Assembly: GCA_963701075.1 (NCBI GenBank)
Contig: OY969559.1
Span: 704,001 to 768,000 of the forward strand
Direction: 5' to 3'
DNA: 64,000 nucleotides
Source: an uncultured Nitrososphaerota archaeon
Lineage (GTDB): Archaea > Thermoproteota > Nitrososphaeria > Nitrososphaerales > Nitrosopumilaceae
Shown here piece after piece: positions 11,690 through 29,353 of the stretch (its first letter is position 1; every line of letters starts with the position of its first letter). The notes under the pieces are model-generated. The model ran no database searches, had not been told where the DNA came from, and saw nothing but the letters and a program-made list of their open reading frames with translations. The position numbers were made by a program, and so were the translations under genes.

Positions 11690-11695
11690 TGGATA

Positions 11696-12133: not shown

Positions 12134-12135
12134 AA

Positions 12136-12735
12136 ATGACTGAAACACAGAATCTTTTACTTTTTAGAAAATGGGATACCTCCAAAATTGAGATTAAAGA
12201 TCCAGGTCTGAGAAATGTCATCTCGCTAAAAAAAGAGATAATCCCAATATCCTTTGGCCGTTCCGCACTGAAGCGATTTAACAAAGCTGAGGTCAACATA
12301 ACTGAGAGACTTGTAAACAAGTTATCTCATTTTGGAAAAAAATATGCAAAGAACACTGGCAGAATGGGTGGAAAAAAGATTCACGCTATAAATACAGTCA
12401 AGACGGCATTTGAAATCATGCATCTTAAAACAGGAAAGAATCCTGTTGAAGTCTTGATAAGAGCAGTAGAACACTCAGCTCCAAACGAAGATACTACAAG
12501 AATAGTTTACGGTGGAACCGTATATCATGTTTCAGTAGATGTTGCTCCTCTTCGAAGAATTGATCTTGCTCTTAGATTCATAGCAGAAGGGGTAAGGGAT
12601 GCAACATTTTCAAATCCAAAGGCGATAGAGGAAAACCTTGCAGAGCACTTGATACTTGCCGCTGCAAACGACATGAACGCACCTTCTGTTAAAAAGAAGA
12701 ATGAGTGAGAAAGAATTGCAATGGCCTCTAGGTAG
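12136..12735 (+). CDS. rps7: Ribosomal protein S7 (uS7), in-frame TGA at 12706-12708
   Basis: SVDVAPLRRIDLALR; the conserved tail ERIAMASR follows the TGA in the same frame. Confidence 0.93.
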
Positions 12736-12755
12736 AAGAGTTTTAAAAAATAAGA

Positions 12756-12859
12756 TAGCCCGAGGCAGATTCGAACTGCCGTCTCCAGGTGTCCTCTCGT
12801 AAGATCCAGAGCCTGGAATCCCTAGCCCAAAAATTGTTTGGCCACTAGACTATCGGGCT
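12756..12859 (-). tRNA. tRNA-Gln(CTG) with two introns (about 12822-12837 in the D-arm, about 12791-12805 in the anticodon loop)
   Basis: Acceptor AGCCCGA/TCGGGCT, T-arm GGCAG-TTCGAAT-CTGCC, anticodon stem CCAGG/CCTGG with CT-CTG-G; 104 nt minus 31 nt gives 73 nt. Confidence 0.88.
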
Positions 12860-12921
12860 ACCAAAACGAGTGGTATAAGTTGAGAATATAATTATTAGGT
12901 TTTACGGTCTGTCCTACGCCT

Positions 12922-13323
12922 GTAAAGTCAGAAACACCCTGACATTACACCTGACATTATGATTTCAACTGATTTTAAACAGTTTTCATTGAAATAAACT
13001 GTTTAAACTCAGTTCATGATTTTAAACTAAAAATTTGAACTAGTTTAAACGCACGCACGAAATTTGTTGAAATGTACTTTAAACACTTTTTCTACACTTT
13101 CATGAGTAGAAAATTTGTTTAAACTTGTTTTTCTACGAGTAGAAATGGGCAAGAAAGAGTGTATCACCTGTTTTCCAATCTGAACTGACTTTAAACACTG
13201 TTTAGCACTTTAAACTTACGGCTAATACTTTGAACTTGACGTTAATCTGTAAACTGTTCATGAATTTAATTTTAAACTAGCAAGTGTAATTTTTGACGCA
13301 CGAAATTTAGAAAAAACAGGAAA
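12922..13323. repeat. Left non-coding element, inverted homologue of 26352-26730
   Basis: Colinear anchors GACATTA x2, GCACGCACGAA (13051-13061), AACTGTTCATGAA (13252-13264). Confidence 0.85.
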
Positions 13324-13512
13324 CTAGGAAAGTCGTGCGTAAGAAACTAGGAAAAACTAAGAAATTGCTATGTGAGAAGATGATGGTGTTACTAGATAGT
13401 TTCCTAGTTTGGAAATTTCCAAACTTTCCTTGGAAAGTTTCCTTGACAGGAAAAATTCATGCCAACTTGAAATTATGGAAAGGTACAAGTCAAGAAAGTC
13501 CCTAGTTTTCCA
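13315..13512. repeat. Block of short AAACTAGGAAA / TTTCCTAGTTT-type repeats
   Basis: gaaactaggaaa twice, aaactaagaaa, tttcctagtttggaaa, ccctagttttcc. Confidence 0.7.
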
Positions 13513-13939
13513 TCATACAATTATTGATATGGAAGGTATCTAATACCAATCCCAGTCGTGCTGTCAAGTGATAATCATATGTCAGATGGGGCAAGCGAAC
13601 ATTTTTCCCTACTCCAAGACACTCGAAATCTTTGTGTGTTGCTAGGCGTCCCAACAACAAACCTGGCACGTTTGTGTGTGGAAAGCCTCTTAACTTTTCA
13701 TGTTGTGTTTTGTTTAGATCGCCCATGGCAATAGACGCATAGCCTATAACATTCACATTTTTGTAGACAAACACCCATGTTTGAGCAATCATATTCCTTT
13801 GGTCATCACATGCTTCTTTTTTGATATAATCTTCATAGATTTTATTACTACATTTGAAATCCTTGATATCGAATAGATTTTCTTCTAAACGATAAACCTC
13901 AACTTCCGTATCTAAATTAATTGAAGTGACTTTAGACAT
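13502..13939 (-). pseudogene. GNAT acetyltransferase toxin (AtaT/TacT-like), truncated after motif A
   Basis: DFKC…YIKKEA, VIGYASI, PGLLLGRLATHKDFECLGVGK, then unrelated sequence. Confidence 0.75.
13521..13608 (-). pseudogene. 3' remnant of an exported-protein gene paralogous to 25166..26335
   Basis: Reads GKMFACP-TYDYH-DSTTGIGIRYLPYQ* versus GKQFECPMGTYDYHIDSTTGIGVKYMPVK*; 22 bp identical (ttgacagcacgactgggattgg). Confidence 0.85.
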
Positions 13940-13949
13940 GAAAAATTAA

Positions 13950-14093
13950 TTATCTATGTACTTTTAACTTTGATCCGCTTTTCACGGCATCTTGAATTAT
14001 CCTTATTTTTTCTGAGGTTGGTTCTTTCTTAAGCTCCGCTACAAATTCGCTCCATTCTTCATTATCCAATGGTTGGACTTCTCGCAATGCCAT
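13950..14093 (-). CDS. 47-aa putative antitoxin resembling the DUF1778 C-terminus
   Basis: Read by hand: MALREVQPLDNEEWSEFVAELKKEPTSEKIRIIQDAVKSGSKLKVHR, 10 bp upstream of the GNAT gene. Confidence 0.6.
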   Translation of the reverse strand: MALREVQPLDNEEWSEFVAELKKEPTSEKIRIIQDAVKSGSKLKVHR

Positions 14094-14755
14094 GTTACTA
14101 ATATGTATACATATTATTTGATTTTTGTGTAAATAGTATACTGTATACTGTACTTGGATGCATTTTGTATGGCAAACTTACCTATGTGTCTTTTTCGATA
14201 ATCAACCATTTACCTTCTGCTTAATGGTTAGGCAATTGAAAGGTGTTTTACTCTGACTCGTCAAGAGGGCATAGATGAGGGCAATATTTGAAAAATTCTC
14301 TCATTTCCTGATCATAGATGTCTTTTGGTATGGTGGCCATTCCTTTTCCATCTAAAGATGGTTTAAAACGCATGATGTATTCTTGTCATAACGATTACCT
14401 CTGTATTTTTCCAACATTTTTTGAGTGAACATGTTGAGCATATGAGTTTGTTGGTCATGTTCTGCTTGGATTTTACGCATCAAGTCATCAATCATGACTG
14501 TTATTTTGGTTTCGAAATTGATAAGGTTTGTTGCTAATTACAAAATTCGAATTCAAGGGAAATAATGAATCATAGAATAGGATAAAGATCCAATGCGACG
14601 ACGAAGAAAAAATAACGGAATATCTGAAAATGAGGTTGAGGTCGGTGGAGTGATTGAAGTGGATCTTAGACAGTTGACTGCACAGGATGAAAATTAATCC
14701 AATAACTTAACTTAACTGATATAAAATTTAACTAGAGGCGATCCTTACAGAAAAT

Positions 14756-14878
14756 ATGGATGGTGAGTATACATGTGGCTGTTTCGTCTGCGGGAAATTA
14801 TTCTTTGAGGAAGATGATTGCACGGAACATATGCAAACGGAACACGGCGGTAGAAGAAAGGATCAGCCTAACTTTTGA
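14756..14878 (+). CDS. 40-aa C2H2 zinc-finger microprotein
   Basis: Read by hand: MDGEYTCGCFVCGKLFFEEDDCTEHMQTEHGGRRKDQPNF (C-x2-C-x12-H-x4-H). Confidence 0.6.
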   Translation: MDGEYTCGCFVCGKLFFEEDDCTEHMQTEHGGRRKDQPNF

Positions 14879-14879
14879 A

Positions 14880-15167
14880 TCATATGTCAACACCATTATA
14901 TCTTCTACATAGCCAAGTTTTCCTTTCTTGAACGATGTTAGACTTTGATGATTTCGAAGGATCTGGGTATTCTAATTTTAATATTCTATGTTTTGAATCA
15001 AACGCCATTTTTAGTAGTATTAATGCCCCAACTCCCATCAAAAATAATCCAGAAAGAAATAGACTACCAATTGCACCTGTAGTATCATTTTGGTACCTGA
15101 GTACAATCGTTGAAACAATCATACCAAAACCAGTGGCAAGTACAGCAGCTCCAACCGCGGTTTCCAC
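14880..15167 (-). CDS. Small membrane protein or gene fragment with two TM helices
   Basis: Two hydrophobic segments; start uncertain. Confidence 0.4.
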   Translation of the reverse strand: METAVGAAVLATGFGMIVSTIVLRYQNDTTGAIGSLFLSGLFLMGVGALILLKMAFDSKHRILKLEYPDPSKSSKSNIVQERKTWLCRRYNGVDI

Positions 15168-15190
15168 GCCTGAGCGTATTCCTTCAATCG

Positions 15191-15541
15191 TTAAGCGTTT
15201 TTGAATCTAAATATTTTTTCTCCTACATCTTTTGGAAAATTGTCTACCTCGACATTATCTGAAAGAAATCTCATCTTTGGTATAACGCCGGATCTGATTA
15301 TTCCTCGCTTTAGATGTACATTTGCAATGTCTGTATATCTATAATCTTCTAGATTTTTTCGCAAACCTAGGGTAGTAGGTCTTTTCACTATTACTCGTTG
15401 AGAAGTAATAAAGATAGTTTCTGGATTTATCAGCGAGGCAGATCTATCTGTCTCTGCTGAAAGTAGAACTTTCTCATTGAATTGCAATAATCTCTTGACA
15501 TCATCTGGTACTTCGATTTCCTTTCCAGTAAAGAAACTCAT
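15191..15541 (-). CDS. Bacterial PH-domain protein (possibly truncated)
   Basis: LLQFNEKVL…IFITSQRVI…YTDIANVHLKRGI pattern. Confidence 0.65.
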   Translation of the reverse strand: MSFFTGKEIEVPDDVKRLLQFNEKVLLSAETDRSASLINPETIFITSQRVIVKRPTTLGLRKNLEDYRYTDIANVHLKRGIIRSGVIPKMRFLSDNVEVDNFPKDVGEKIFRFKNA

Positions 15542-15611
15542 TTGCTGGCTATCTCAGTGCATAGTAATAGAAAAGGGTTAGGGTAGTATTTTGGCAGTTT
15601 TGATAAATTTT

Positions 15612-16991
15612 TCAACTGCATGTGTAAGATGCTACAAGATTCACATTCTTTGTCGAAATCGTCGAGTAGGCATTGGACAATATCAGATAGTATTGTCCGG
15701 AAGACAGACCAATGTTCAATGTCCCTAAAGCTACCTTGCCGCTATTGTAATACGTATAGGGAGAGCCACCTGACTGGAACTGCCTAAACCCAGTAGAATC
15801 AACCACATATACAATGATGTTATTTCCAAGTGAGGCTTGTGCAGAAAACTCTCCGGTTACAGTTCCAGAACACTGCATGTTAAATGGAATGTAGGTATAG
15901 GTATGGGGACCAACCTGATACACAGAATTTGCTATGAGAAAGCTAGGCACTTGAGAATTGGAAGGATTGGGGTTGATTGCACTGACTGGATTTTTTTGTC
16001 CTGCTAGTTCTAGTTGTTGTGATAGAGATGGGTTTTGGTTTGATGTCAGAGTTGATTGGTATGCATTTACCTGAATTGAAATATCTTCACTTCTTGCGCT
16101 AGAATATCCAGAACCTCCTTGGAATATTGCATAGATGTTGGCAGTGTTGCTAGTTGCAGGCTTTGTTGCAGTCCAAGTCACACTAAACTGGCCATTTGAA
16201 TCAGTATATGACGAACCTAAAATTACATCTGGAGCAAGGGTGATGTCTCTTTGAACATCAACCGTCTGGTTTAGAATGCCGTTACCATTTGAATCGGTTA
16301 ACCGTCCTGAGAATGTCACTGTTTGACCTTGTGAAACAGTATAAGCTGATGACTGTATGTTGATGCTTGTCCCTACTAATGGAGAAGACGGGTTAGAGTT
16401 GTTTGAATATCCTGAATTCTGTGAGCTTCCAAAAATGTGGCTTTTCAATTCATTAACTACATTTACTTGTCTTGTGGATTCAAATGGTACTGGAACAGAA
16501 AGCCCCAAGAAGTTAAAGTATGCAGTACCGCTTACCTTGAAATTTATCACGCCGCCAGATTCTACTATTGAAGCAACAGCGGGTTTTATGCTGCTAAACT
16601 GAATATCCTGGTTGTCCTCAATGCTTTTTGTTTCGCCCGGATTGATTGTTTCGTCTATGTGACTCTGGCCTTGTCCCACCTTTACATCATTTATCAAGAG
16701 ATCATATGATACATCTGGGATGTAGACTGGAAAAAATCCATGGTTACTTAGAGCAAATCCTAGTCCCAGTTTGACTCCAGTTATCAGATCAAGTGCAGCC
16801 CCAAGCCAATTTTGCAATAGAGCATTGATACCTGCTTTAACAAGGGATCCTTGAGTTAGGGAGACGTCAAGACTTTGATATGATATGTTTTCAAGACTGA
16901 TCTGAATCTGAGTATAAGAATATGCAATCAGGCCAAGTATAATTCCAACAATTGCTACAGCTATGATTGCAGCAATAACCCCCGTCTTCAT
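15612..16991 (-). CDS. Membrane-anchored LEA_2/WHy-domain protein with Ig-like and C-terminal beta-sandwich domains
   Basis: N-terminal TM; NHGFFPVYIPDVSYDLLINDVKVG LEA_2 pattern; TDSNGQFS Ig-like motif; start taken at MKTGV. Confidence 0.65.
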   Translation of the reverse strand: MKTGVIAAIIAVAIVGIILGLIAYSYTQIQISLENISYQSLDVSLTQGSLVKAGINALLQNWLGAALDLITGVKLGLGFALSNHGFFPVYIPDVSYDLLINDVKVGQGQSHIDETINPGETKSIEDNQDIQFSSIKPAVASIVESGGVINFKVSGTAYFNFLGLSVPVPFESTRQVNVVNELKSHIFGSSQNSGYSNNSNPSSPLVGTSINIQSSAYTVSQGQTVTFSGRLTDSNGNGILNQTVDVQRDITLAPDVILGSSYTDSNGQFSVTWTATKPATSNTANIYAIFQGGSGYSSARSEDISIQVNAYQSTLTSNQNPSLSQQLELAGQKNPVSAINPNPSNSQVPSFLIANSVYQVGPHTYTYIPFNMQCSGTVTGEFSAQASLGNNIIVYVVDSTGFRQFQSGGSPYTYYNSGKVALGTLNIGLSSGQYYLILSNAYSTISTKNVNLVASYTCS

Positions 16992-17002
16992 GCCTAGTTC
17001 AT

Positions 17003-17054
17003 TCCGGTACAACTAGATAAATAAGATCATAATTCAAATCTAGAGAAAATCTAC
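17003..17054. repeat. 52-bp direct repeat, copy 1
   Basis: tccggtacaactagataaataagatcataattcaaatctagagaaaatctac; one mismatch to 20392-20443. Confidence 0.92.
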
Positions 17055-17091
17055 AGTTTTTCAAAGATTCTTGCTATGAGAAATGTCACAA

Positions 17092-17361
17092 TCACTTTCT
17101 TGAAAATGGAGCAAGTGATTTTTCTCTCAACCCAAAAATTAGAATTGGTATTCCAATTATTACTATACAAAGAGAAATCAAACGGAATAATAGCCAATTT
17201 GAATAATTGCCAGAACATTCGTGAGATGTAAAAGGTTGAGTAGAATCTATCTGACAAGTTGGAATAAACATGTGTAACACCAGCAAATTATTCTGGGGTA
17301 TGGACAAAATCGAGCCAACAACAATCATTGCAATGCCTGCCACAACTTTTAGTTTATTCAT
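17092..17361 (-). CDS. Small membrane protein with two TM helices
   Basis: Two hydrophobic helices flanking a Cys-containing loop. Confidence 0.55.
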   Translation of the reverse strand: MNKLKVVAGIAMIVVGSILSIPQNNLLVLHMFIPTCQIDSTQPFTSHECSGNYSNWLLFRLISLCIVIIGIPILIFGLREKSLAPFSRK

Positions 17362-17489
17362 ACTCTCAACTAGAACAATTTTTGATAATTAGGTTTGTGG
17401 AACAATCTTACAGTGGGAATCTACACCAGTTTTTTAAAGTTTGAAAAGTGGATAATTATATATTTTGAGACCTCCGGGAAGTTATTACG

Positions 17490-17900
17490 ATGAACCCATC
17501 CGAACAAATTGACAAACGGATCGCAGAACTAGCAGATTGGCGTGGCGATGTGCTTGCCAAACTTCGTAAAATCATCCATGATGCTGATCCAAAAGTGATC
17601 GAGGAATGGAAATGGATGGGAACCCCAACCTGGTCGCATGATGGGATATTCGTGATAGTAAATGCGCACAAAGACAAGGTGAAGATGACTTTTTCTCACG
17701 GCGCAAGTCTTCCAGATCCCGAGAAGGTCTTCAACGCGGGACTAGATGGTAACAAATGGCGCGCGATCGATTTCCATGAGGGCGACAAGATTAATGAACG
17801 TGCTTTGAAAAATTTCATCCGCTCGGCTATTGCGCTCAATACTGCTGCCTTGAAAAAGAAAACTTTCAAGACCCGACCTAAAGCAAAGAAAAAATCGTAA
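17490..17900 (+). CDS. DUF1801 (YdhG-like) protein
   Basis: LRKIIHDADPKVIEEWKWMGTPTWS…FSHGASLPDP. Confidence 0.9.
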   Translation: MNPSEQIDKRIAELADWRGDVLAKLRKIIHDADPKVIEEWKWMGTPTWSHDGIFVIVNAHKDKVKMTFSHGASLPDPEKVFNAGLDGNKWRAIDFHEGDKINERALKNFIRSAIALNTAALKKKTFKTRPKAKKKS

Positions 17901-17944
17901 CTAGGGCGGTTAAGCAAAAAGATAATTACTAAATCATAAGGCTT

Positions 17945-17980
17945 ATATTCCTATAAAGGAATATTCCTGTAGAGGAATAT
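17945..17980. promoter_or_regulatory. Tandem palindromic operator, probable ArsR autoregulation site
   Basis: ATATTCC-N6-GGAATAT twice, overlapping, 7 bp upstream of the arsR-family ATG. Confidence 0.75.
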
Positions 17981-17987
17981 TAAATTC

Positions 17988-18347
17988 ATGAAAGCTACCC
18001 TAAGTGCATTAAGTGTACTGGCAGAACCTAATCGTTTACATATTGTTGAACTTTTGCGTGATGGGCCACGACCAGTTGGAGATATTGTCAATAGACTCCG
18101 ATTACACCAACCACAAGTCTCCAAACATCTACACGTGTTAAGTAATGCTGGATTAGTCGAGATGCATCCAGTTGCGCAGCAACGGATCTACAAACTTCGT
18201 CCAGAACCACTCAAAGAGTTAGACACATGGCTGGAATCATATCGTAGCATTTGGAATGAGAAACTTGATCGACTGGATGATTATCTTATCAAACTACAAG
18301 AAAATGAAATGAAACAGAGAGGAAAGAAACATGGCAGAAAAAAATAG
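17988..18347 (+). CDS. ArsR/SmtB family transcriptional regulator
   Basis: LAEPNRLHIVELL…QPQVSKHLHVL…AGLV winged helix. Confidence 0.92.
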   Translation: MKATLSALSVLAEPNRLHIVELLRDGPRPVGDIVNRLRLHQPQVSKHLHVLSNAGLVEMHPVAQQRIYKLRPEPLKELDTWLESYRSIWNEKLDRLDDYLIKLQENEMKQRGKKHGRKK

Positions 18348-18849
18348 TACCAACACAGGAACATCGGATAGAGAACTCACTATCACACGAATATTTGATG
18401 CTCCACGTGAGCTAGTGTTCAAGGCTTGGACTGACCCAAAGATAATTGCAAAATGGTGGGGTCCAAGAGGCGTAACAAATCCTGTTTGTGATCTGGCTGC
18501 GCGACTTGGTGGCTCTATCCACATTGTTATGTTGGCAGGTAAAGACCTTGGCGACCTAGAAGGACAAAAGTGGCCCATGAAAGGAATCTTCAACGAAATC
18601 ATTCCGCCCAAGCGCATTGTTTTCACCTCTTCTGCAATAGAGGATGAAGACGGCAACCCACAACTCGAGAATAAAGTTACAATAATGCTTGAGGATTTTG
18701 GAGGAAAGACGAAAATGATACTACATATAGTCGTGACCAAGGCAGGGCCGGGAACAGAAGGACCGCTTTCTGGAATGGAGATGGGCTGGAATCAGAGCAT
18801 CGATAAGCTCGGGGAAGAGCTGGGAAAACGCGTTATTAGCACAGGTTGA
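18331..18849 (+). CDS. SRPBCC/AHSA1 domain protein
   Basis: ITRIFDAPRELVFKAWTDP…WWGP…GWNQSIDKL. Confidence 0.92.
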   Translation: MAEKNSTNTGTSDRELTITRIFDAPRELVFKAWTDPKIIAKWWGPRGVTNPVCDLAARLGGSIHIVMLAGKDLGDLEGQKWPMKGIFNEIIPPKRIVFTSSAIEDEDGNPQLENKVTIMLEDFGGKTKMILHIVVTKAGPGTEGPLSGMEMGWNQSIDKLGEELGKRVISTG

Positions 18850-19029
18850 AAACTCTACTTAACGTATAAAAATACTAAAGGAGTTTTTCAGCCTTCAAAG
18901 GCATAGGTTTAGGGAGTTTAAGAGAGTTTAAAACAGGCTTAGACTTTTGTCAGAGATAAAAAAAGCAGTTTGGTTGCAAATATCTTTATAATTTAGATTG
19001 TTAATCCGGTACCTAAACAGGAATATGAT

Positions 19030-20328
19030 ATGTCAACTGATCCAATAAAACATGTTATCGTACTCATGCTTGAAAACAATTCCTTTGATCATATTCTTGG
19101 ATCACTAACCAAGATAAAAAAAATTGATGGAGTGCAACCAAATTTACCATCCACTAACAATTATGCTGGGAATACCTACAAGCAAACAGCTGACAACTCT
19201 CCGATAGTTTCTCCAGATCCAATGCATGATCTCAAAGATACTCTAGCCCAGATTGGAACCGACGACAAGGGCAACGAGATGGGTAACTTTGTTGAAAATT
19301 ATTACGAGTCCTTCAAAGACAAGCCCCAGCCTGCACAGCTCGGGCAAGTTATGAATTATTATTCATTTAACAGCCTGCCTGTACTGCATCAACTAGCTAG
19401 TCAATTTACGATATGTGATCATTGGTTCTCTTCCATGCCTGGACCCACATGGCCAAACCGCCTCTTTGCCATGTCAGGCACTTCACTTGGGAGGGCAACA
19501 ATGCCATCAGGTATAATGGATCTCAGTCTTCACTTTTATGATCAAACCACAATATTTGACCGCCTTGACGAGAAGAAATTAACTTGGAAAGTATACTTTG
19601 GGGATATCCCAGTCTCGTTGGTTCTGGCCCATCAGTGGGAGCCACAAAATGCTGTTCGCCATAGGCCATTGCTCGAACTCTACGATGATTTCAAAAAAGA
19701 ATCAGAAGTGCCAAATTTTGTTTGGATAGAGCCAAGCTACATGCCGCCTACAGCAAACGATTACCATCCTCCACACAATGTTTTTCGTGGAGAAAAACTT
19801 GTTGCAGATGTCTACAACGCTTTGCGCGCAAACGAAGAACTTTGGAACTCTACTCTCTTTGTAGTGTTATTTGATGAGCATGGGGGCTTTTACAATCATG
19901 TCACACCCCCGCAAGCAACTCCTCCGGACAATAATAGCAAAGAGTGGACTTTTAATCAACTAGGTGTGCGGGTCCCTGCAATTCTTGTCTCTCCATGGGT
20001 TGGAAATGGTGTAATATCAGACACCTTTGACCACACAAGTCTGCTCAAATATTTGACAGACAAGTGGGGGCTAGGGACACTTGGAGCGCGGACAGCCAAT
20101 GCAAAAAGTTTTGCCAGTGCGATTTCATCTACATGCAGGCCAGATACTCTAAAACAACTAACAGTTCCATCTTTTGATGAAACCCAAACCATTCCAGACG
20201 AGCTAACAGAGCATGAAAAAGCCATGGTCTCTCTTTCTAAGGTACTGGAATCAAAGGCAGGAGAAGATGACAGTGTAATTGCCCAACGCAGCAAGCAGAG
20301 CTCAAAAAGACCTGTCTGGACAGATTGA
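19030..20328 (+). CDS. Phosphoesterase (phospholipase C / acid phosphatase family)
   Basis: IKHVIVLMLENNSFDH, GPTWPNR, DEHGGFYNHV, GVRVP, FDHTS motifs. Confidence 0.9.
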   Translation: MSTDPIKHVIVLMLENNSFDHILGSLTKIKKIDGVQPNLPSTNNYAGNTYKQTADNSPIVSPDPMHDLKDTLAQIGTDDKGNEMGNFVENYYESFKDKPQPAQLGQVMNYYSFNSLPVLHQLASQFTICDHWFSSMPGPTWPNRLFAMSGTSLGRATMPSGIMDLSLHFYDQTTIFDRLDEKKLTWKVYFGDIPVSLVLAHQWEPQNAVRHRPLLELYDDFKKESEVPNFVWIEPSYMPPTANDYHPPHNVFRGEKLVADVYNALRANEELWNSTLFVVLFDEHGGFYNHVTPPQATPPDNNSKEWTFNQLGVRVPAILVSPWVGNGVISDTFDHTSLLKYLTDKWGLGTLGARTANAKSFASAISSTCRPDTLKQLTVPSFDETQTIPDELTEHEKAMVSLSKVLESKAGEDDSVIAQRSKQSSKRPVWTD

Positions 20329-20391
20329 TGCAGCCTTGAGCCGTGTACAAGGTTTTCTTAGCCACCAAGCCTTCAAAATTTAGTGGCTCTA

Positions 20392-20443
20392 TCCGGTACA
20401 ACTAGATAAATAAGATCATAATTCAAATCTAGAGGAAATCTAC
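20392..20443. repeat. 52-bp direct repeat, copy 2
   Basis: Matches 17003-17054 with one mismatch. Confidence 0.92.
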
Positions 20444-20474
20444 GTCACTTTTTTTAAGCATTAATTTTAGAATC

Positions 20475-20918
20475 ATAACAAATGAAACACGCAGACTTGC
20501 AATAACATTCATCATAATAGGTTCTTTTTTTGGTATCGTTTTTGCCTTTACACAACAAGCAAGATATTCGTATCCGGCTCCAGAACCTACAACAATGTGC
20601 AAAACAGTACAAAACATAGAACAGGCATTGGTATCTTTTACTGTTGACAAAGCAAAAGCAATTTCTATTGCAAAAGGCAGCATGGAATTTGAAAAAAATA
20701 CCGCAGGATACAATGTAGAAAATACCGAAGTACAGGTGCCCTTTAGTTTTAACGTATTTAGCTGCTCATTTCCTCGTATAGAAAATGTATTTGTGGGCTT
20801 TCTTCTCAGTAATGGAACACAATCGCATGTCTTGCTTTTGCAAGAAGACCCTTCCCTCGGTGGGGTTGACGCAATAGAACAAGTTCCAGTTGGTCAATAT
20901 GGATTTTTCAAACAATAG
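20475..20918 (+). CDS. Exported/membrane-anchored hypothetical protein, array member 1 (start uncertain)
   Basis: Frame is open upstream of 20595 through the TM LAITFIIIGSFFGIVFAF; start is ATA at 20475 or ATG at 20482 with an indel. Confidence 0.6.
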   Translation: MTNETRRLAITFIIIGSFFGIVFAFTQQARYSYPAPEPTTMCKTVQNIEQALVSFTVDKAKAISIAKGSMEFEKNTAGYNVENTEVQVPFSFNVFSCSFPRIENVFVGFLLSNGTQSHVLLLQEDPSLGGVDAIEQVPVGQYGFFKQ

Positions 20919-20921
20919 GAT

Positions 20922-21542
20922 ATGCCAAAAATGAAGATTCCATATCTTACAATAGTTTCAGTAACTACCTTGGCAATCACCATTTCAGTCTATGTTTTCC
21001 TTCTTATCCAAAACGAGCCAATACAACCACAGCAATGCTCAGAATCTCAATTAACCAATTGCATATCCAGTTTTAGCATGGAGATAGACAACGAGAGCAA
21101 AAATTATCATAAATTTCAAGTCATGGATACAGTAAACAAGCCAGTAGAATTTGACGGCATAAAATTCGTATATGCTGGCACCAGTACGCCTAGCACTGAC
21201 GGCATAAACTGTGATGCCGTATTTCCAAGGGCAATAAACTCAACCTTGGGTCACCACCCTCCAGAAATTGTAAACTATGGCGGATACTTCAAAATAAACG
21301 AGACTCGGCACTTTACTGCTACTTTTCCAAATGGCCAGACAAAATCCCTTACGCTGTGCTGGAATGGTAATGCAAGAGCAAAGGTTACGCAGATGATAGA
21401 TTCTGGCCTGGGAATAGGTCCAATGTTTTGTCCTTCAAGGACAAGTTGGTTTGATGATAACAAGACTGCCGGCATAATTCAAGATGAATACTGTTCTTCT
21501 GACAGTCCATATTATGACAATTACATTGCGGAGGTACGATAA
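20922..21542 (+). CDS. Exported Cys-rich hypothetical protein, array member 2
   Basis: MKIPYLTIV signal/anchor sequence. Confidence 0.75.
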   Translation: MPKMKIPYLTIVSVTTLAITISVYVFLLIQNEPIQPQQCSESQLTNCISSFSMEIDNESKNYHKFQVMDTVNKPVEFDGIKFVYAGTSTPSTDGINCDAVFPRAINSTLGHHPPEIVNYGGYFKINETRHFTATFPNGQTKSLTLCWNGNARAKVTQMIDSGLGIGPMFCPSRTSWFDDNKTAGIIQDEYCSSDSPYYDNYIAEVR

Positions 21543-22781
21543 ATGAAAACTCTACATCTTGCAATAATTCTAGCCAGCACATTTCTACTCCTTACACTTG
21601 GCACTCACAATACATTTGCATCACAGGAATTTATACTGTCATCTCTTCCAATTAATCTCAGTCCAAATCCTCCGGTGATGATAGATCAAGTAGAACTTGA
21701 CAGTGCATTTGCATTATTTCCTGATAATCAAACATGTTATGACAAGCCAGGATTTGCCAACAACTATACTTGTTCTACAAATTTGGTTCCAGGCCACAAG
21801 GTTCAATGCGCATATTTTATTGGCAGTAGCTACTGTGAACCCATACATCGATACACCAGCGGTACAAGACAGACATGCCTTGATCTAAATACCATTCAGA
21901 ATACACCTCAATGGTTTGATATGTACAATACGCAAAACAAGACAGTACAGATACAATTGTTTGCGCTCACAATACATCAAGGAACAAGACCATGGGGACA
22001 GCAAGGGATTCCTCCTGCCGTGATTAGTCTTGGACCATATGAAAAATGCACATACACATTTAATCCCGTAGACGAACCTCTCTCACTTGACCAGACAAAC
22101 ATGTCTACGGTAATATCGTACACATATGGTGCAAAGAACTATACCGTATCAACACCCGAGCTGACTGACATACAAAACGATAGCAGGACATGGCAACTTG
22201 ACGGAAACAAGTGGGTTTTTGCAGAACAAAATACGGTGCAACCTCCAGAGATTCCAATCTTGCCACTACAGCAACTCAAGTCAGGAATACCTATAGAGTA
22301 CATACAGTGCAAACCTCCTCTCGTACTGTTTCTAAAACAGGAAGATAAATCTCCTGCCTGTCTTACCCTTGATACGTCAGACAAGCTGCAAAAGATCAAG
22401 TGGCTTGCCCAGCCTCCATACCGTAACATCATTGTCAACAAGACAAGAGATCTAGTCACTTCAAGTCCAACTTTTGAGACTTTTGGAATCAAAAGCACTC
22501 TTTTTGTAGACAATGACTTTACATGCATCTTGACAGAACCACTGCAATGCACCAGCCAGGCCTTTTTTGATGGGGCTCGCCCCGGTTATGGCAATGGGAC
22601 AAATCCGCTTGTTCCTGTAAATACAATCATCCATCACAATGTGACAATTCTGACAAATAATACAAATCATGTAGAATGTGCAGTAATTGATGGACTCTGG
22701 GATGACCTAAACCAGAAACCACTTGAGAAAAATGATCCGATTTGTGGATATCTGTATGGATTCAAGGGAGGGTTGCCGTAG
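21543..22781 (+). CDS. MKTLHL-type exported protein, array member 3
   Basis: Signal peptide; PLQQLKSGI…C…KQEDKSPAC module. Confidence 0.8.
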   Translation: MKTLHLAIILASTFLLLTLGTHNTFASQEFILSSLPINLSPNPPVMIDQVELDSAFALFPDNQTCYDKPGFANNYTCSTNLVPGHKVQCAYFIGSSYCEPIHRYTSGTRQTCLDLNTIQNTPQWFDMYNTQNKTVQIQLFALTIHQGTRPWGQQGIPPAVISLGPYEKCTYTFNPVDEPLSLDQTNMSTVISYTYGAKNYTVSTPELTDIQNDSRTWQLDGNKWVFAEQNTVQPPEIPILPLQQLKSGIPIEYIQCKPPLVLFLKQEDKSPACLTLDTSDKLQKIKWLAQPPYRNIIVNKTRDLVTSSPTFETFGIKSTLFVDNDFTCILTEPLQCTSQAFFDGARPGYGNGTNPLVPVNTIIHHNVTILTNNTNHVECAVIDGLWDDLNQKPLEKNDPICGYLYGFKGGLP

Positions 22782-22783
22782 AA

Positions 22784-23722
22784 ATGAAAACTCTACATAT
22801 TTCAATAATCATATTGATTACAATCGTAATTGTGGAGATTAATACGAATGCGTATGCAACGTGTGCATTTACAGGTCTGGATAAAAAAGAGATCTGTGTG
22901 AACGGTAATCTACTTGATATTTCAGCACAAGGAGAAAATGATAGATGTGTTGCAGGACCGGGAATGTCGTGCCCAATAGCAAATATTGAATCGCCATTAA
23001 CGCAATTCAAATCAGGTATTGCAGCAAAGAATGTGGCATGTGCCAATGATCTTATGCTAGTTATCAAAGCAGAGGATAATTCTCCGGCATGTGTAAAATC
23101 TGATACTGCCCAGAAATTGATGGAAAAAGGTTGGACAAGAGAGGTTGTCACATCAAACTTGGATGTAGACTCGTCATGTAATGGAACCACAATACTTTCC
23201 CCAAACTATCACGCAATGATGTTTCCAGTTCTTTTGATGCAGCCAAACTCAACCTCATGTGTAAAATTGACTTATACTGTTATCAGACCTTATGGCGTGT
23301 ATGAAGATAGTGTAAGCTGGCCACAAAATGAGACCATTCCACTTCAGATAAGCGATCTAAACTATGAAGGTAATGCTAACGAGTTTGGAATAACTCAAGG
23401 AAAAGACTATACAAATTCATTCAACATTATTGCATTTCCAAAAATAATTGATCATGCAAATTATCCTGTAGGCTCTAACTTTACAGTAACTTATCTAATT
23501 CGACCTCTGCCAAACGCAACTGGCTTTTACGACCAATCAATACCAATGCCTCTCTGTTTTCGGTATCCTCTTGCAGTAGGACATACTGCAGAGCAAGTAA
23601 ACTCGTCTGATTTCTCAAAGGATCTATTCATTATGTTGAATCACTCCTGCATGAGAGGACAAGATGAACTTGTAGGAGTAGAGGTAAAGGGCATGAACTA
23701 CACTGAGATGAAGCTTCCATGA
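22784..23722 (+). CDS. MKTLHL-type exported protein, array member 4
   Basis: Start at MKTLHISII; SPLTQFKSGI…KAEDNSPAC module. Confidence 0.8.
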   Translation: MKTLHISIIILITIVIVEINTNAYATCAFTGLDKKEICVNGNLLDISAQGENDRCVAGPGMSCPIANIESPLTQFKSGIAAKNVACANDLMLVIKAEDNSPACVKSDTAQKLMEKGWTREVVTSNLDVDSSCNGTTILSPNYHAMMFPVLLMQPNSTSCVKLTYTVIRPYGVYEDSVSWPQNETIPLQISDLNYEGNANEFGITQGKDYTNSFNIIAFPKIIDHANYPVGSNFTVTYLIRPLPNATGFYDQSIPMPLCFRYPLAVGHTAEQVNSSDFSKDLFIMLNHSCMRGQDELVGVEVKGMNYTEMKLP

Positions 23723-23750
23723 TCTGCCAAAATTTACTGGATATTGCAAG

Positions 23751-25163
23751 ATGAAATCTCTATCTTTCTTAATAATTGCAATTCTGGTACTTTTCACACT
23801 GCTGTACCTCAAACCGATACAGGCAGACAGCACAGGTAACATCGAAATACAAGACATCAAAACTCTGCCTACTGCAGTTATCATTGGACACACGTTCAAG
23901 ATTAACGCGACCCTTGTCAACAACTCGATAAGCCCGATATCTGTTGAACATGGCCCCTGTGAAGCCCCGTTCTCTGCAACTTTTGATAGTCATGTCCTAG
24001 TCAGGATGAATAACATAACATGTACGACTGACATGGTCTTGCAAAAACTAGACCCCGAAGAAAAAATCACGGCCACCAGTCCATACTTGGATGTCGCCTA
24101 TGTGGCTTCACAACCAGGAACAGTAAACGCAACCGTAACATTCCGATATTCGATATGGGATCAAAATAACCAGTCAAACGTCGAGGAAAAAGTTTCAGCG
24201 CCATTTTCATTTAACATAAATCCTATGACCCAAGTGTCACCACTGGAACCATCTGAAAATAATGATAATTCTTTTGTGCTAAATTTCGAATCTGTAAAAG
24301 AGAGATATCTGACACTAATCAACGCAACAGAACTCAATCTTGTCATAACTAATAGTTCAGAGTTTAAGGAACAGGTACAAGGATACAACTATAGCTTTGC
24401 AGAAGCAATATCTAGACTTGGATATGATAAAAACAACAGCTATACGGTGTGGCCTGTAGATGTCGTATATTCTCTATATCACTCTGACTTGTATGACTAT
24501 GACAAGACACTGGTTGTTACAATGGATTCAAACTTGAATATGCTTGGCACTACAGAATACAATCCTTGGAATGTGCCGCCTGGCTATCCACGTCCTGCAA
24601 TGAGTCCACTCTTCATACATGGAAACTATGCCCCGCCGAAAATTGATATCAACAAACTGGTAAATCTCATACCACCTTCTCCGCCCGAGCAGGTAAAACA
24701 TGGAGTAGCTCCAAACGATGTTAACTGTCTTGCTGGTTTTGGATTGATCTTCAAGCAAGAAGACAGATCACCTGCTTGCGTCAGTGATAATACTGGCAGA
24801 TACCTCGCAGAACGTGGATGGGCAATAAATCAGACTCAAGAATCAATCATTCTGGCAGAGGACCATGGAGAAGATGATATGAACAAGAATGGAACAATAA
24901 CTGGAAAAAATACGATTGACATAAACATAAAAAATTTCCAGATTCTCTCTCCACCTGTTACTGTTGAAATCTTTTATTCAAATGGTACATTGTATGAGAC
25001 TGATGAAATATCCTCAAATAGCATTCAACCAGGCGGCTATTACAAATACACTTTTACAGTCTCATCTACAAATGCAAGTGATGTCTTTGGCAAATACCGG
25101 GTGGATGTAGAGCACAATGGCAACAAGGCAGAGACATTCGTTGAGATTTTAGTACCACCTTAG
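23751..25163 (+). CDS. MKTLHL-type exported protein, array member 5
   Basis: MKSLSFLII signal; SPPEQVKHGV…KQEDRSPAC module. Confidence 0.8.
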   Translation: MKSLSFLIIAILVLFTLLYLKPIQADSTGNIEIQDIKTLPTAVIIGHTFKINATLVNNSISPISVEHGPCEAPFSATFDSHVLVRMNNITCTTDMVLQKLDPEEKITATSPYLDVAYVASQPGTVNATVTFRYSIWDQNNQSNVEEKVSAPFSFNINPMTQVSPLEPSENNDNSFVLNFESVKERYLTLINATELNLVITNSSEFKEQVQGYNYSFAEAISRLGYDKNNSYTVWPVDVVYSLYHSDLYDYDKTLVVTMDSNLNMLGTTEYNPWNVPPGYPRPAMSPLFIHGNYAPPKIDINKLVNLIPPSPPEQVKHGVAPNDVNCLAGFGLIFKQEDRSPACVSDNTGRYLAERGWAINQTQESIILAEDHGEDDMNKNGTITGKNTIDINIKNFQILSPPVTVEIFYSNGTLYETDEISSNSIQPGGYYKYTFTVSSTNASDVFGKYRVDVEHNGNKAETFVEILVPP

Positions 25164-25165
25164 AA

Positions 25166-26335
25166 ATGAAAACGCTACATCTTATCGTAATTACAATTCT
25201 AGGAGTTGCCATTGTTATGGGCAGTAATGTCGTATCTGCACAGGCTGAAACAACGGTTTCTCCGCTAAAACAATTCCAATCAGGAATACCAATTTCGAAC
25301 ATACAGTGTGCGCAAGACCTTTCACTTGTCATCAAGGCAGAAGACAAAACTCCGGCCTGCATCAACCAAGACAGCATTTCAAAGCTCATACTACGTGGTT
25401 GGCTAAGTACAACATCTTCTCTTGGCCAAAATAATACAATTTTTGGCAACTTTTATCAAGGAATAGAAAATGATTCCGGAATTGTATCCATCAAGAACCA
25501 GACTTATTACATGATGACTGTATCAAACACCACTTATCCAATAGTACATGGCATGACAGTAAAATTCCATCAGGTAACTTTCTCATTTCCATATGGCGCA
25601 CAAGCTACGCCGGGAGGCATCATCATTCCTTTTGACATGACATTCCCAGACGGTACCACGGAAACATATGGAAACGTTACAAAGAATCCAGACGGTTCTG
25701 GTTCTATCTCAGGTATATCGCTTGGTCCCGGGCCATCATCAAACAGGACTGTTACGGTTCAAAGCGATCACATGCATCATCAATCTGGTGTAACCCTGAC
25801 AGAAGATCAGGTAAAACTCCTAGTTAGTACAGATACAACGACCATACAAACACAGACACCTGAAAACCATACATTACCTGCCTCGTTTGAGCCATGTGAC
25901 ACACCTTTTCCACAAAATTATACAGGGATACCAATCTTGTACATGCAGCAAAACTCGACAGCGAAAATTTGCGTAAGATACCACAACCTCAATGACTTTG
26001 CAGCCCAGGCAGGAATCAGAGTCTCTGATGCAGGCAACCTGACTGGAGAGGCAACTGCGATCTCAACTTGGAGTGACTCGGAAAACAACCAGATACCTCC
26101 AAATCAAGACCTAACAATTGTATACTGGATCAAGACGGGAGACAAGGCAGGATTTTATGGACTGACAATATTTTGTGCTCCGATGCCTTTGGTTGTGGGA
26201 TATGACAACAATTCTACCATAACTGCAAGTGATTTTCCATGGTTTGGCAAGCAGTTTGAATGCCCAATGGGAACATATGATTATCATATTGACAGCACGA
26301 CTGGGATTGGAGTAAAATACATGCCAGTGAAATAA
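25166..26335 (+). CDS. MKTLHL-type exported protein, array member 6
   Basis: Signal peptide; SPLKQFQSGI…KAEDKTPAC module. Confidence 0.8.
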   Translation: MKTLHLIVITILGVAIVMGSNVVSAQAETTVSPLKQFQSGIPISNIQCAQDLSLVIKAEDKTPACINQDSISKLILRGWLSTTSSLGQNNTIFGNFYQGIENDSGIVSIKNQTYYMMTVSNTTYPIVHGMTVKFHQVTFSFPYGAQATPGGIIIPFDMTFPDGTTETYGNVTKNPDGSGSISGISLGPGPSSNRTVTVQSDHMHHQSGVTLTEDQVKLLVSTDTTTIQTQTPENHTLPASFEPCDTPFPQNYTGIPILYMQQNSTAKICVRYHNLNDFAAQAGIRVSDAGNLTGEATAISTWSDSENNQIPPNQDLTIVYWIKTGDKAGFYGLTIFCAPMPLVVGYDNNSTITASDFPWFGKQFECPMGTYDYHIDSTTGIGVKYMPVK

Positions 26336-26351
26336 TGTAATGAAAAATTAC

Positions 26352-26791
26352 GGTTCCTAATTTTTTGGCAAACTTTATGTGTCCAAATTAACACTCTGGT
26401 TCAAAATCATGTTCATGAACAGTTCACAGGTTAATGGCAGGTTCAAAGTGTGAACCATGTTCAAAATTAAACTCATGTTCACAAGTTGGCAAGCTCTTTT
26501 TTTTTGAACCGTTTTTCATATATGAATTAACACGAGTTAACAAAACATTTTGTGCCTAGTGAGTCTAACTAACATAGAGTTAACAAACTTCGTGCGTGCA
26601 TTTTAACATGTTAAAAATTTGGTTCAAAATATTGTGAGCTAAATCTTAACATGTTAATTCTTGTTCAAACTGGTTAAATCATGTTAAAATTATAATGTCG
26701 CACATAATGTCATCTTGAATCGGACATTATACGAACGAAATCGAGGTAAAAAAGCTTTAATTATTGTGTAGCAATCGGACATTATTGGAAC
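26352..26791. repeat. Right non-coding element, inverted homologue of 12922-13323, plus an outer AATCGGACATTAT direct repeat
   Basis: TTCATGAACAGTT 26412-26424, TTCGTGCGTGC 26589-26599, ATAATGTC 26692 and 26704, GACATTAT 26723 and 26778. Confidence 0.85.
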
Positions 26792-26867
26792 AAAAAATAA
26801 CAGAATACAATTTTATCATGAACAATGTTTACGAATGCATAAATACATTAAAACCAAGTCTACGTAA

Positions 26868-27764
26868 ATGAAAGTCATTTTATTTTTAGGGTTTGTAGCA
26901 ATACTCTTTTTCGCAGGTGCAATGTTTGCAACTCAAGCCAGTGCACAGCAATATCCATCGCAGTCCGGACAACACCAATTCCAAGGAACGCGTACCCCTG
27001 TAAATGGCACAACATATACCAACGCTAACTATGGAGTTCAAGTGGCAATTCCAGATGGATGGAGTGGCTCTGAGATAAAGCGAACTACGGGAGCTACATC
27101 TGTAACTTTAGCACCGGGAGGATTTCAGTCAATGCAAGGAGGACAGCGTCCACCAGTTACTATATCTATATCCGTGATACCAAAAGGCTCTACACCATAT
27201 ACTCCACACTTTATGCCAAGAAATATGCAAGATGGTGAAACGTGTACCAATTCTACATCAACACAGACTTTTAACAGCTTGAACTTTAATGAAGTAATTG
27301 TAGAATGTAACGGAACTGTGGATATGAAGTCCCAGTATGAGATGACCCAGACAGACTCGGCCTATATTACACTTGGACTGAGGGCAAGCCCATCATCTGG
27401 TTTTGATTCTCAAGTTACAACCTTTGATACCATGCTTGGGACATTGCAGATTACAAACGCATCTCAGAATACCGTAACTCCATCTCAAAGCATTGTAATT
27501 CCGTCGTGGGTAAAGAAGAATGCTGGTTACTGGGCAACAGGTCAGCTAGGTGATTCTGATTTTGTTTCAGGTATGCAGTATTTAGTTCAACAAGGAATAA
27601 TGAAAATACCATTATCGACATCAGCATCAAATTCTTCATCTCAACAAATCCCATCTTGGGTAAAAACAAATGCTGGTTGGTGGGCCAATGGACAAATATC
27701 TGATAGCGACTTTGTCAAAGGAATACAATATCTTGTATCAAACGGCATAATGAAAATATCATAA
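26868..27764 (+). CDS. Secreted protein with two thaumarchaeal IPSWVK…AGWW…GIQYL C-terminal repeats
   Basis: Signal peptide; duplicated C-terminal module. Confidence 0.8.
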   Translation: MKVILFLGFVAILFFAGAMFATQASAQQYPSQSGQHQFQGTRTPVNGTTYTNANYGVQVAIPDGWSGSEIKRTTGATSVTLAPGGFQSMQGGQRPPVTISISVIPKGSTPYTPHFMPRNMQDGETCTNSTSTQTFNSLNFNEVIVECNGTVDMKSQYEMTQTDSAYITLGLRASPSSGFDSQVTTFDTMLGTLQITNASQNTVTPSQSIVIPSWVKKNAGYWATGQLGDSDFVSGMQYLVQQGIMKIPLSTSASNSSSQQIPSWVKTNAGWWANGQISDSDFVKGIQYLVSNGIMKIS

Positions 27765-27873
27765 ATCAAATCCCAACAAAACATTATCTCAGTACTTTGA
27801 TTAAATTTTGTTTATATCATGTCAGGAATCTGAAATATGATGTAATATTAAGAGAGTTTGATTACTGTTTAGC

Positions 27874-28887: not shown

Positions 28888-28994
28888 ACCATCAAACAAG
28901 AATCAGAGTGTAGACAAATCTAAGATTATTTTCACATAATTTGTTATGATCGTACCTGAGTCAATAAAATCAAAATTAAGATCTGCGACTAACC

Positions 28995-29315: not shown

Positions 29316-29353
29316 TGATAACGTTCAAAAGTCTATTCTTAATTTATTGGTTG

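Follow-up and report, generated by a model that had tools for sequence, protein, structure and literature searches.

Inverted arms of an integrase-less archaeal island are probably the attachment ends of a tyrosine-recombinase element family

The window analyzed here is a stretch of 64,000 nucleotides located at 704-768 kb in the 1.92-Mb genome of an uncultured archaeon (G000 in the genome comparisons). It contains a 13.9-kb island (12897-26764) enclosed by two inverted non-coding arms, which an earlier note on this DNA had regarded as a candidate new platform for recombination or mobility. The question raised by this locus is what these arms are and how an island without an integrase came to lie between them. 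We consider it probable (about 0.75) that they are att arms, of the long type that bears an array, from a family of tyrosine-recombinase elements that is restricted to one genus and belongs to the class of the cryptic integrated elements (CIE), the island being an integrase-less copy. The genus would be Nitrosotalea, judging from the source name of one homologue.

The Two Arms Are Homologous, Inverted, and Non-coding

The left arm (12897-13330, plus strand) is homologous to the reverse complement of the right arm (26340-26756, minus strand), as found by local alignment, by blastn, and by a MAFFT alignment of 12850-13400 with the reverse complement of 26280-26800. The local score of 74 is far above that of dinucleotide shuffles (13.9 ± 1.9, maximum 21, n = 300), and the arms aligned in the wrong orientation score only 13. 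In the global alignment, 279 of the 386 aligned pairs are identical (72%). When each arm was compared by blastn with the whole genome, its sole match was its counterpart (63.5% over 400 columns, E 3e-24), i.e., there are only two copies. A second homologous block was detected by blastn between 13500-13600 and 26254-26353 (76%, E 1e-11). On the outer side, the homology reaches the island boundaries (12897 and 26756), and on the inner side it enters the flanking ORFs at their 3' ends; the colinear inverted pair reported earlier is thus real, and longer than had been noticed. It is also true that neither arm has a credible ORF, since none of at least 60 aa was found within 12709-13501 or 26336-26867, and 13335-13543 holds only frames of 43-56 aa.

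The left arm begins with a terminus that we call End2 (12897-12972, plus strand), which has two GACATTA motifs and scores 81 bits with the terminus model R1 (E 9e-23, over 12887-12972 including the core described below), and continues with TTTAAAC/TTGAAC motifs and CACGCACGAAA blocks arranged in an array. The End2 of the right arm (26680-26756, minus strand) scores 65.3 bits (E 8e-18, over 26680-26765 including the core). The right arm directly adjoins the stop codon of a gene encoding a 389-aa exported protein (25166-26335). On the left side, an alignment gap and direct reading delimit an additional stretch of about 180-190 nt (13331-13512), rich in GGAAA/TTTCC repeats and restricted to this arm.

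That the arms encode a structured non-coding RNA appears highly improbable. The fold z-scores are mildly negative on the two strands of the left arm (-2.40 and -2.45) and on one strand of the right arm (-2.35), but those of the left arm are equal on both strands and the other strand of the right arm gives -0.81, and therefore the values are as from palindromic DNA motifs. In the Rfam search only a tRNA was above threshold, whereas the miRNA-like matches reached 24 bits against thresholds of 63 bits, and the identity of the motifs varies between elements, their layout being constant.

The Island Lies at an Occupied Hotspot Upstream of a tRNA Gene

The statement that there is no tRNA att duplication proved misleading, because the island lies 38 nt upstream of an intron-bearing tRNA gene (12756-12859, minus strand; Rfam RF00005, 43.8 bits, E 7.7e-8), whose 5' end faces the left boundary. 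This gene has two insertions (20 and 18 nt) with respect to the Rfam model and was missed by ARAGORN; its anticodon, read by eye, would be CUG (Gln). Junction alignments with relatives locate the left core copy at 12888-12896, ATAATTATT, i.e., the 8-bp palindrome ATAATTAT plus a T, and the right core copy, TAATTATT, at 26757-26764. An 8-bp direct repeat, TAATTATT, which overlaps the palindrome, is therefore found at both junctions (12889-12896 and 26757-26764), and both junctions fall exactly at the core. The core is located 29-37 nt upstream of the tRNA 5' end, and thus we presume from its position that it is the TATA box of this gene. Since the palindromic 8-mer falls where the target gene has its TATA-box position, the host promoter would be rebuilt after insertion.

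The comparison with relatives, several of which are fragmentary assemblies, revealed empty sites. The region 12897-26757 is absent from the four closest relatives (G064, G019, G070, and G068; flank identity 95-97%), and in G019, G008, and G001, the equivalent of about 11390-12896/12900 is joined straight to 26758-26796. In 11 more loci of the genus, which we call virgin, the tRNA promoter is joined straight to position 28996. This promoter site is in fact a hotspot: of the 30 genus loci examined, 17 are occupied. An older layer, common to relatives, follows the island: 26765-26796 (plus strand) aligns with them as a relic of the short integrase-side end, or End1 (GTGTAGCAATCGGACATTATTGGAAC...), and it is the only motif of this type in the genome. 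In G008 and G069, an integrase gene lies about 100 nt past End1 at the same tRNA site. The inserted sequence behind the relic (26797-28995, plus strand) contains a gene for an exported protein of 298 aa and an ORF of 337 aa that, by eye, reads as a putative aldo-keto reductase; comparison with relatives showed this inserted sequence present in G064 and G068 and partial in G019, G070, and G061, and the 11 virgin loci lack it.

The Same Termini End Integrase-Bearing Elements

In seven other genomes of the genus, elements end in this terminus of about 85 nt with a 400-700-nt array of phased short motifs behind it, and thus the arms are conserved cis elements, as had been suspected, namely element ends. 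R1 matches with E < 1e-10 were obtained in 8 of the 63 genus genomes: G000 (twice), G018, G075, G072, G011, G071, G078, and G069. An order-level draw of 151 genomes (149 of them outside the genus) yielded two matches only, both weak (E 3e-6 and 1e-3). End2 adjoins the core ATAATTATT, or a sequence very close to it, in G018, G072, G075, G071, G078, and the metagenome contig L195, and a core of this type is found next to End2 at no fewer than three distinct loci; the terminus of G011 has no such core, and G002 contains an array without a recognizable terminus.

All seven other genomes with End2 encode a tyrosine integrase of 400-430 aa, linked to End2 on one contig in six cases, one of them on a metagenome contig. 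The 427-aa protein of G072 matches Pfam Phage_integrase above the cut-off (2e-9). Given that the same termini end elements with such an ordinary tyrosine recombinase, the idea of a new platform does not hold, and the island is no new class of mobility machinery. The integrase family was found in 9 of the 63 genus genomes, including the seven other carriers of End2. In G000, it had no match (best tblastn E 0.68; a separate genome search also gave 0 matches), so that the cognate family is missing not only from the island, which has no integrase, but from the entire genome, and any mobility would need, as proposed, a recombinase supplied in trans. The four PF00589 genes of this genome, at 565, 980, 1238, and 1773 kb, are unrelated to the element integrase (BLASTP, E > 2). 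They all lie outside the window, like the only Cas1 gene (position 1,913,408, about 1.2 Mb from the island), in agreement with the earlier report that the window has neither recombinase nor Cas1. A Pfam scan of seven island ORFs revealed no Cas1 or transposase.

Casposons, of which there are thaumarchaeal examples, combine terminal inverted repeats with a short flanking repeat. The island resembles them in both features, and its genome has a Cas1 gene, so that a casposon-like element or another DNA transposon, with terminal inverted repeats of about 430 bp and an 8-bp target-site duplication, might be invoked. This reading retains almost no probability and is contradicted by the distance of Cas1, the constancy of the core, and the nature of the relatives. 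The island itself lacks Cas1 and PolB, and its complete relatives are asymmetric, with End1 different from End2, and encode a tyrosine integrase. Moreover, the same flanking 8-9-mer is found at unrelated sites, which would be expected for an att core and not for a target-site duplication. The earlier note, which did not recognize a casposon end here, was correct, and the arms have no Rfam match.

Complete Elements Have Asymmetric Ends and a Palindromic Core

Three elements of the tyrosine-recombinase family, of 13.6-16.9 kb, could be seen end to end (G072, 258,052-271,690; G071; and G075), and in all of them the integrase is placed at the end opposite the array terminus: End1, i.e., a short end with RTGT..AAYCNGACATTATKGGAAC, precedes the integrase gene at one extreme, and the array and End2 form the other. 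A second layout, with the order core, End2, array, and integrase, was found in G078 and L195. The elements would recombine at the 8-9-bp core ATAATTATT, and in the excised circle the arrays would lie upstream of the integrase gene. At one locus, the same element is found in opposite orientations in G072 and G075, and thus the palindromic core seems to allow either orientation, which raises a testable question about the directionality of the tyrosine recombinase. Across the integrase-bearing elements compared, no protein other than the integrase is shared by all. The divergence of its N-terminus does not follow the array type, and the winged-helix matches of this region are all below the Pfam cut-offs.

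The motifs GTGAAC, GTTAAC, TGAACT, and CACGCA occur in the arrays at 10-16 times their genome frequency, and the same-strand spacing of the array motifs peaks at 11 and 19 nt (18 pairs each). Other motifs are element-specific, such as AGCTA in G011 and L195, TTGGCA in G069, and CATAAC in G078. Most likely, the arrays are putative binding sites for the integrase or for accessory proteins. This phasing and the element-specific motifs could also suit an episomal form, in which the arrays would be replication origins (iterons) or partition sites, and the backbone of about 10 genes common to the G078/L195 subfamily could include replication functions. Such a role is nevertheless quite improbable: in 9 of the 10 arrays examined, no more than about 90 nt separate the array from the crossover core (the exception is G002), a replication-protein family was undetected in the island ORFs and the seven G078 ORFs scanned, and the content common to G072 and G075 is limited to the integrase and overlapping frames at its locus.

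Altogether, these elements define a testable integrative-element family in ammonia-oxidizing archaea of acid soils, with an 8-9-bp palindromic core, one short end on the side of the integrase, and one long end with the motif array; by their position, the core sites would be promoter TATA boxes.

Relation to Known Integrative Elements

The thaumarchaeal CIE have a median size of 17 kb and att repeats as short as 8 bp, and, according to the main text of their description, all but one of the tRNA-targeting elements are found within the 3' portion of the tRNA gene (Krupovic et al., 2019; PMC6563490). Judged against that main-text description, the elements studied here resemble CIE in size (13.6-16.9 kb), in having the integrase as the sole conserved gene, in the very short att repeat, and in the tRNA-associated or intergenic target, tandem element arrays also being known. 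They differ from the CIE so described in their target, a palindromic core that lies at the TATA-box position, before the 5' end of the tRNA gene, and in having a 400-700-nt motif array at one end, and the island of the window differs further in having two array ends and no integrase.

In bacteria, cis-mobilizable elements (CIMEs) are flanked by attL and attR, have lost the recombination module, and take part in accretion at one site. The island is likewise att-flanked, lacks a recombination module, and lies beside the remnants of other elements at one hotspot, but it is archaeal, its ends are one arm present twice in inverted orientation instead of attL plus attR, and its mobilization is putative. 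In lambda-type attP, a tyrosine recombinase acts on a short core with inverted core-type motifs, and a long arm with protein-binding motifs lies by the integrase gene. The family shares with it the recombinase, the short core flanked by inverted core-type motifs, and a repeat-motif arm next to the integrase gene in the predicted circular form; in contrast, its arm has two to four times the length, its core is perfectly palindromic, elements occur in both orientations at one locus, and integrase binding is putative.

Cargo, Rearrangement Scar, and Probable History of the Island

The cargo (13594-26259; Pfam and NCBIfam) includes a bPH_3 protein, an Ig-like/LEA_2 membrane protein, DUF1801, an ArsR regulator, AHSA1, a phosphoesterase, and exported-protein genes, and its homologues are scattered gene by gene through the genus. 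It had been stated that each arm lies just downstream of an exported-protein gene. This is correct for the right arm, next to the 389-aa gene, but not for the left arm, next to which lies a chimeric ORF (13502-13939, minus strand). Comparison with homologues showed that its GNAT acetyltransferase homology covers residues 1 to about 112 of a family of about 175 aa and then stops; the clear GNAT homologues have 171-180 aa in 16 of 17 cases and 151 aa in the other. The last 27 codons or so match the 3' end of the 389-aa gene and derive from an 81-nt relic of a gene of this type (13513-13593, minus strand; 76% identity to about 26260-26343), which is frameshifted and has stop codons in the original frame. 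In G063, the sequence matching the relic is a native gene end. The fusion of the truncated GNAT gene to the relic, with its seam at about 13593-13600, is a rearrangement scar.

The island has two End2 arms that face outward, and no integrase. We infer that it probably arose from two sister elements belonging to one sub-lineage, both with an exported-protein gene beside the array, which would have been placed tail-outward at the tRNA promoter core; one internal deletion would then have taken both integrase ends, leaving the relic fused to the truncated GNAT gene. A sister origin is favored by the comparison of 10 arrays, in which each arm of the island matches the other best (74; next best 45 and 59), and by the exported-protein homologues in the G071 element described below. 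Neither an undeleted tail-outward pair nor an integrase element with two End2 arms was found, and thus this history is a reconstruction. The arms, 63-72% identical, diverged before the island arrived, because relatives with flanks of 94-97% identity lack it. The precise landing at the core could be explained by an integrase that was present transiently, or by homologous recombination that brought in the whole locus.

An unlikely alternative history is that the island entered as one unit and is a working satellite with two arms, which together with the palindromic core would form a symmetric attachment site, so that the tyrosine integrase of a helper could insert, excise, or flip it. Its termini do score like those of integrase-bearing elements in R1 (81 and 65 vs. 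47-84 bits), the junctions are exact, the arms diverged long before the recent arrival, and the core seems to permit either orientation, as in G072 and G075. However, this island is the only one of its kind among the genus genomes and the order draw, the inner edge of its left arm is a scar that destroyed two genes, and the cognate integrase is absent from the genome. The contigs of four metagenome runs (X1, X3, X4, and X5) show the integrated form only, with neither inversion nor excision seen, although contigs drop rare variants. If the satellite existed, archaeal accessory cassettes, here exported WING-49 proteins, would travel without a recombinase of their own. Under the two-element history, the island now appears to be a non-autonomous att-flanked remnant, movable only with a cognate integrase in trans, and accessory genes, including exported-protein arrays, would become fixed in the genome after integrase loss.

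The five paralogous exported-protein genes of the island lie at 20922-26335, and three of them were scanned with NCBIfam, all three having a WING-49 domain. The proposed tie between the arms and secreted-protein arrays stands only in part: the orthologue of the 389-aa gene in G063 has no array behind it, and the cargo of other elements is unrelated, but the integrase-bearing element of G071 does contain homologues of the exported-protein genes of the island (47% identity, E 2e-45).

Inverted arms and boundaries of the island

The island is flanked by two inverted copies of a non-coding arm, the left one at positions 12897-13330 and the right one at 26340-26756. The inverted homology claimed in the earlier note is real and longer than noted. 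Region 12850-13400 was aligned by MAFFT with 26280-26800 in reverse complement, and a second homologous block (13500-13600 versus 26254-26353) shows 76% identity. When each arm was compared by blastn with the whole single-contig genome (G000; 1,915,938 bp), the sole match was the other arm (63.5% over 400 columns; E 3e-24), and in a global alignment 279 of the 386 aligned pairs are identical. The local alignment score of 74 is far from the 13.9 ± 1.9 (maximum 21) of 300 dinucleotide shuffles and from the score of 13 for the non-complemented orientation. As had been stated, neither arm contains an ORF of at least 60 aa. The suggestion that the arms might encode an ncRNA did not hold, since they have no Rfam match and their fold z-scores do not differ between the two strands; a structured RNA was thus set aside.

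In three relatives (G019, G008, and G001), the sequence of window ~11390-12896 is joined straight to that of 26758-26796. The junction (slash) reads ...GAGAATATAATTATT/GTGTAG... in these relatives, ...TATAATTATT/AGGTTTTACGG... at the left side of the island and ...GCTTTAATTATT/GTGTAGC... at its right side. This comparison sets the bounds of the island at 12897-26764 (~13.9 kb), with an 8-bp repeat, TAATTATT, at both sides. An empty site exists in the four closest relatives, G064, G019, G070, and G068 (tRNA flanks 95-97% identical), from which 12897-26757 is missing, and G064 is colinear with the window from 26798 to 58024. The identity between the arms (63-72%) is far lower than that between this genome and the relatives without the island, indicating that the arms diverged elsewhere. 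The island could have arrived through a transient integrase or by import of the whole locus through homologous recombination.

The tRNA flank is an insertion hotspot

The claim that there is no tRNA att duplication had overlooked a tRNA gene at 12756-12859 (- strand; Rfam 43.8 bits), which carries two insertions and is absent from the ARAGORN output. The left copy of the repeat contains a perfect palindrome, ATAATTAT, which lies upstream of the tRNA gene, 29-36 nt from its 5' end, and is presumably the TATA box. ARAGORN also missed a 97-nt tRNA at 57870-57966 (+ strand; Rfam 39.6 bits), probably intron-bearing, and thus ARAGORN alone under-counts the tRNAs of this genome.

The tRNA flank was found in 58 of the 63 genus genomes. 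Among the matches listed, 30 tRNA-flank loci could be counted, 13 being virgin sites (GAGAATATATTATTTTGTAC...) and 17 showing ATAATTATT followed by foreign DNA. Eleven of the 13 virgin loci, those with enough flank, run straight into window 28996-30497, and in 10 of the 17 occupied loci, again among the matches listed, the foreign DNA opens with End1 (RTGT..AAYCNGACATTATTGGAAC), a short conserved end found on the integrase side of related elements. Window 26765-28995, which comprises an End1 relic, a gene of 298 aa, and a gene of 337 aa (by eye, a putative aldo-keto reductase), forms a layer that was inserted earlier. The core, i.e., the 8-9-bp crossover site, appears to be a point at which elements accrete. 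In G069 (contig C108, 10,476-10,630), a single TAATTATT core bears two different element ends back to back. An end of the type 'AGCATT...' also stands next to the core at the tRNA site of G064 and of G011, and a third end variant probably exists.

The ends belong to an integrase-borne element family

A pattern search found the left arm's outermost ~45 nt in 5 of the 63 genus genomes, once in each. With R1, a model built from sequence alone for the ~85-nt terminus of the array-bearing end (End2), matches at E<1e-10 were obtained in 8 of the 63, i.e., G000 (twice, at 81 and 65 bits), G018, G075, G072, G011, G071, G078, and G069; outside the genus, an order-level draw of 151 genomes gave only two weak matches. 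A degenerate 20-mer had at least 119 matches in metagenome contigs, and of the 80 loci listed one, on contig L195, is a true terminus by R1, the others being chance or partial matches. Three contigs from unrelated samples (L175, L137, and L163) each match the GACATTAC-CCTGACAT part of R1 partially at several spaced positions; these may be unrelated repeat arrays.

G072 harbors a complete element. Its flank, ...GTATAATTATT, leads into End1 and a 427-aa protein matching Pfam Phage_integrase above cut-off (2e-9), the array and terminus lying 13.6 kb beyond the integrase end, at 271,690. The G071 element has the same layout and spans 16.9 kb. In G078 and L195, the order is core, End2, array, and integrase, and at the very tRNA site of the island G008 and G069 encode the integrase ~100 nt after End1. 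This integrase family is present in 9 of the 63 genus genomes, among them each of the seven other genomes that have a strong End2 match, and has no match in G000. The absence of a recombinase from the window was confirmed, the four PF00589 genes of this genome lying elsewhere and being unrelated to the integrase family by BLASTP. Genomes G011, G019, G069, G070, and G012 are flagged as unpublished, and some claims rest partly on them: the G011 terminus and integrase and, for G069, both the integrase at the tRNA site and the back-to-back ends; the G019 and G070 junctions are matched by the same result in G064, G068, G001, and G008.

G075 carries the element family of G072 at the same locus, with orthologous flanks on both sides and in opposite orientation, which suggests that the palindromic core permits insertion or inversion in either direction. 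The two elements (G072 contig C7, 258,043-271,700; G075 contig C9, 6,290-21,110) have integrases 94% identical and no cargo ORF in common at E 1e-4. No second arm was found in either, and the two flanks of the second hotspot are not adjacent in G000, so that it offers no empty site for comparison. About 2.7 kb within the G072 element (~263,330-266,060) consist of long homopolymer runs of all four nucleotides, which swamped a self-BLAST and probably arose artificially during assembly or masking.

The island is a non-autonomous variant of a tyrosine-recombinase integrative element, and the new recombination or mobility platform proposed earlier gives way to a known class, described for Thaumarchaeota in PMC6563490. 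A full-text literature search found no other papers on such elements in the genus; the supplementary tables of PMC6563490 may list family members. A casposon or transposon was set aside, Cas1 being distant and the relatives being asymmetric and integrase-bearing. Contigs cross the left junction in sequencing runs X1, X3, X4, and X5 and the right one in X1, X3, and X4; in the metagenome contigs of two studies, which miss rare forms, only the integrated form was seen, with no excision or inversion joint.

Motif arrays

The motifs GTGAAC, GTTAAC, TGAACT, and CACGCA reach 10-16 times their genome frequency in nine arrays, distances between motifs on one strand are most often 11 nt or 19 nt, and seven arrays have in common a colinear central block, TTGAAC..GTTCA..CACGCACGAAA..GTT. 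Other motifs differ, such as AGCTA in G011 and L195, TTGGCA in G069, and CATAAC in G078. The array lies beside the core (within ~90 nt) in nine of the ten arrays examined, and in an excised circle it would stand upstream of the integrase gene; it was therefore read as a putative arm-type protein-binding region. The winged-helix Pfam matches of the integrase N-terminus are all below cut-offs, and no covariation between this N-terminus and array motif type was apparent, the N-terminal identity (35-89%) tracking that of the catalytic domain (41-95%).

Cargo

The integrase is the sole protein common to all integrase-bearing elements compared. G078 (contig C23, 8,500-15,500) and L195 (2,800-9,500) have in common a syntenic backbone of ~10 genes, including a phage-type Dam methyltransferase (PF05869, 3.8e-22). 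Nothing in the genus matches the interior of the island as a whole, homologues being found only gene by gene, and those of its exported-protein genes are present in the G071 element. The view of the arms as a conserved cis element held, in the form of element ends, but a fixed tie of the arrays to exported-protein genes was set aside, because G063 has an orthologue of the 389-aa exported-protein gene without any array.

The island also contains a 52-bp direct repeat (17003-17054 and 20392-20443; 51/52 identical) with two copies only in the genome and no homology beyond it. It encloses a 3.4-kb block encoding an 89-aa membrane ORF, DUF1801, ArsR, AHSA1, and a phosphoesterase, and resembles an att scar left by another, nested insertion that also lacks a recombinase.

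Origin of the left arm

Each arm had been placed 3' of the same exported-protein gene family. This is true of the right arm, which abuts a 389-aa gene, but the left one adjoins a 145-aa GNAT chimera. Leaving out the near-identical 145-aa protein P0001 and the short, weak P0019, this ORF has 17 clear homologues, 16 of 171-180 aa and one of 151 aa, one of them named at source as a 'Nitrosotalea sp.' GNAT acetyltransferase. Homology ends at about residue 112, and the ~27 codons after it repeat, in a shifted frame, the final ~80 nt of the exported-protein gene of 389 aa, whose end is native and array-less in G063. The left-arm module thus consists of gene relic, array, and terminus, and the rearrangement that fused it to the remainder of the island destroyed two genes.

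Among the ten arrays, the best match of each arm is the other arm. The simplest history would be that two sister elements lay tail-outward at the core and that a single deletion took out the integrase end of each; alternatively, the array end may have undergone an inverted duplication. A 47-aa ORF (13950-14093, - strand) immediately precedes the truncated GNAT gene, and the two could be a toxin-antitoxin remnant.
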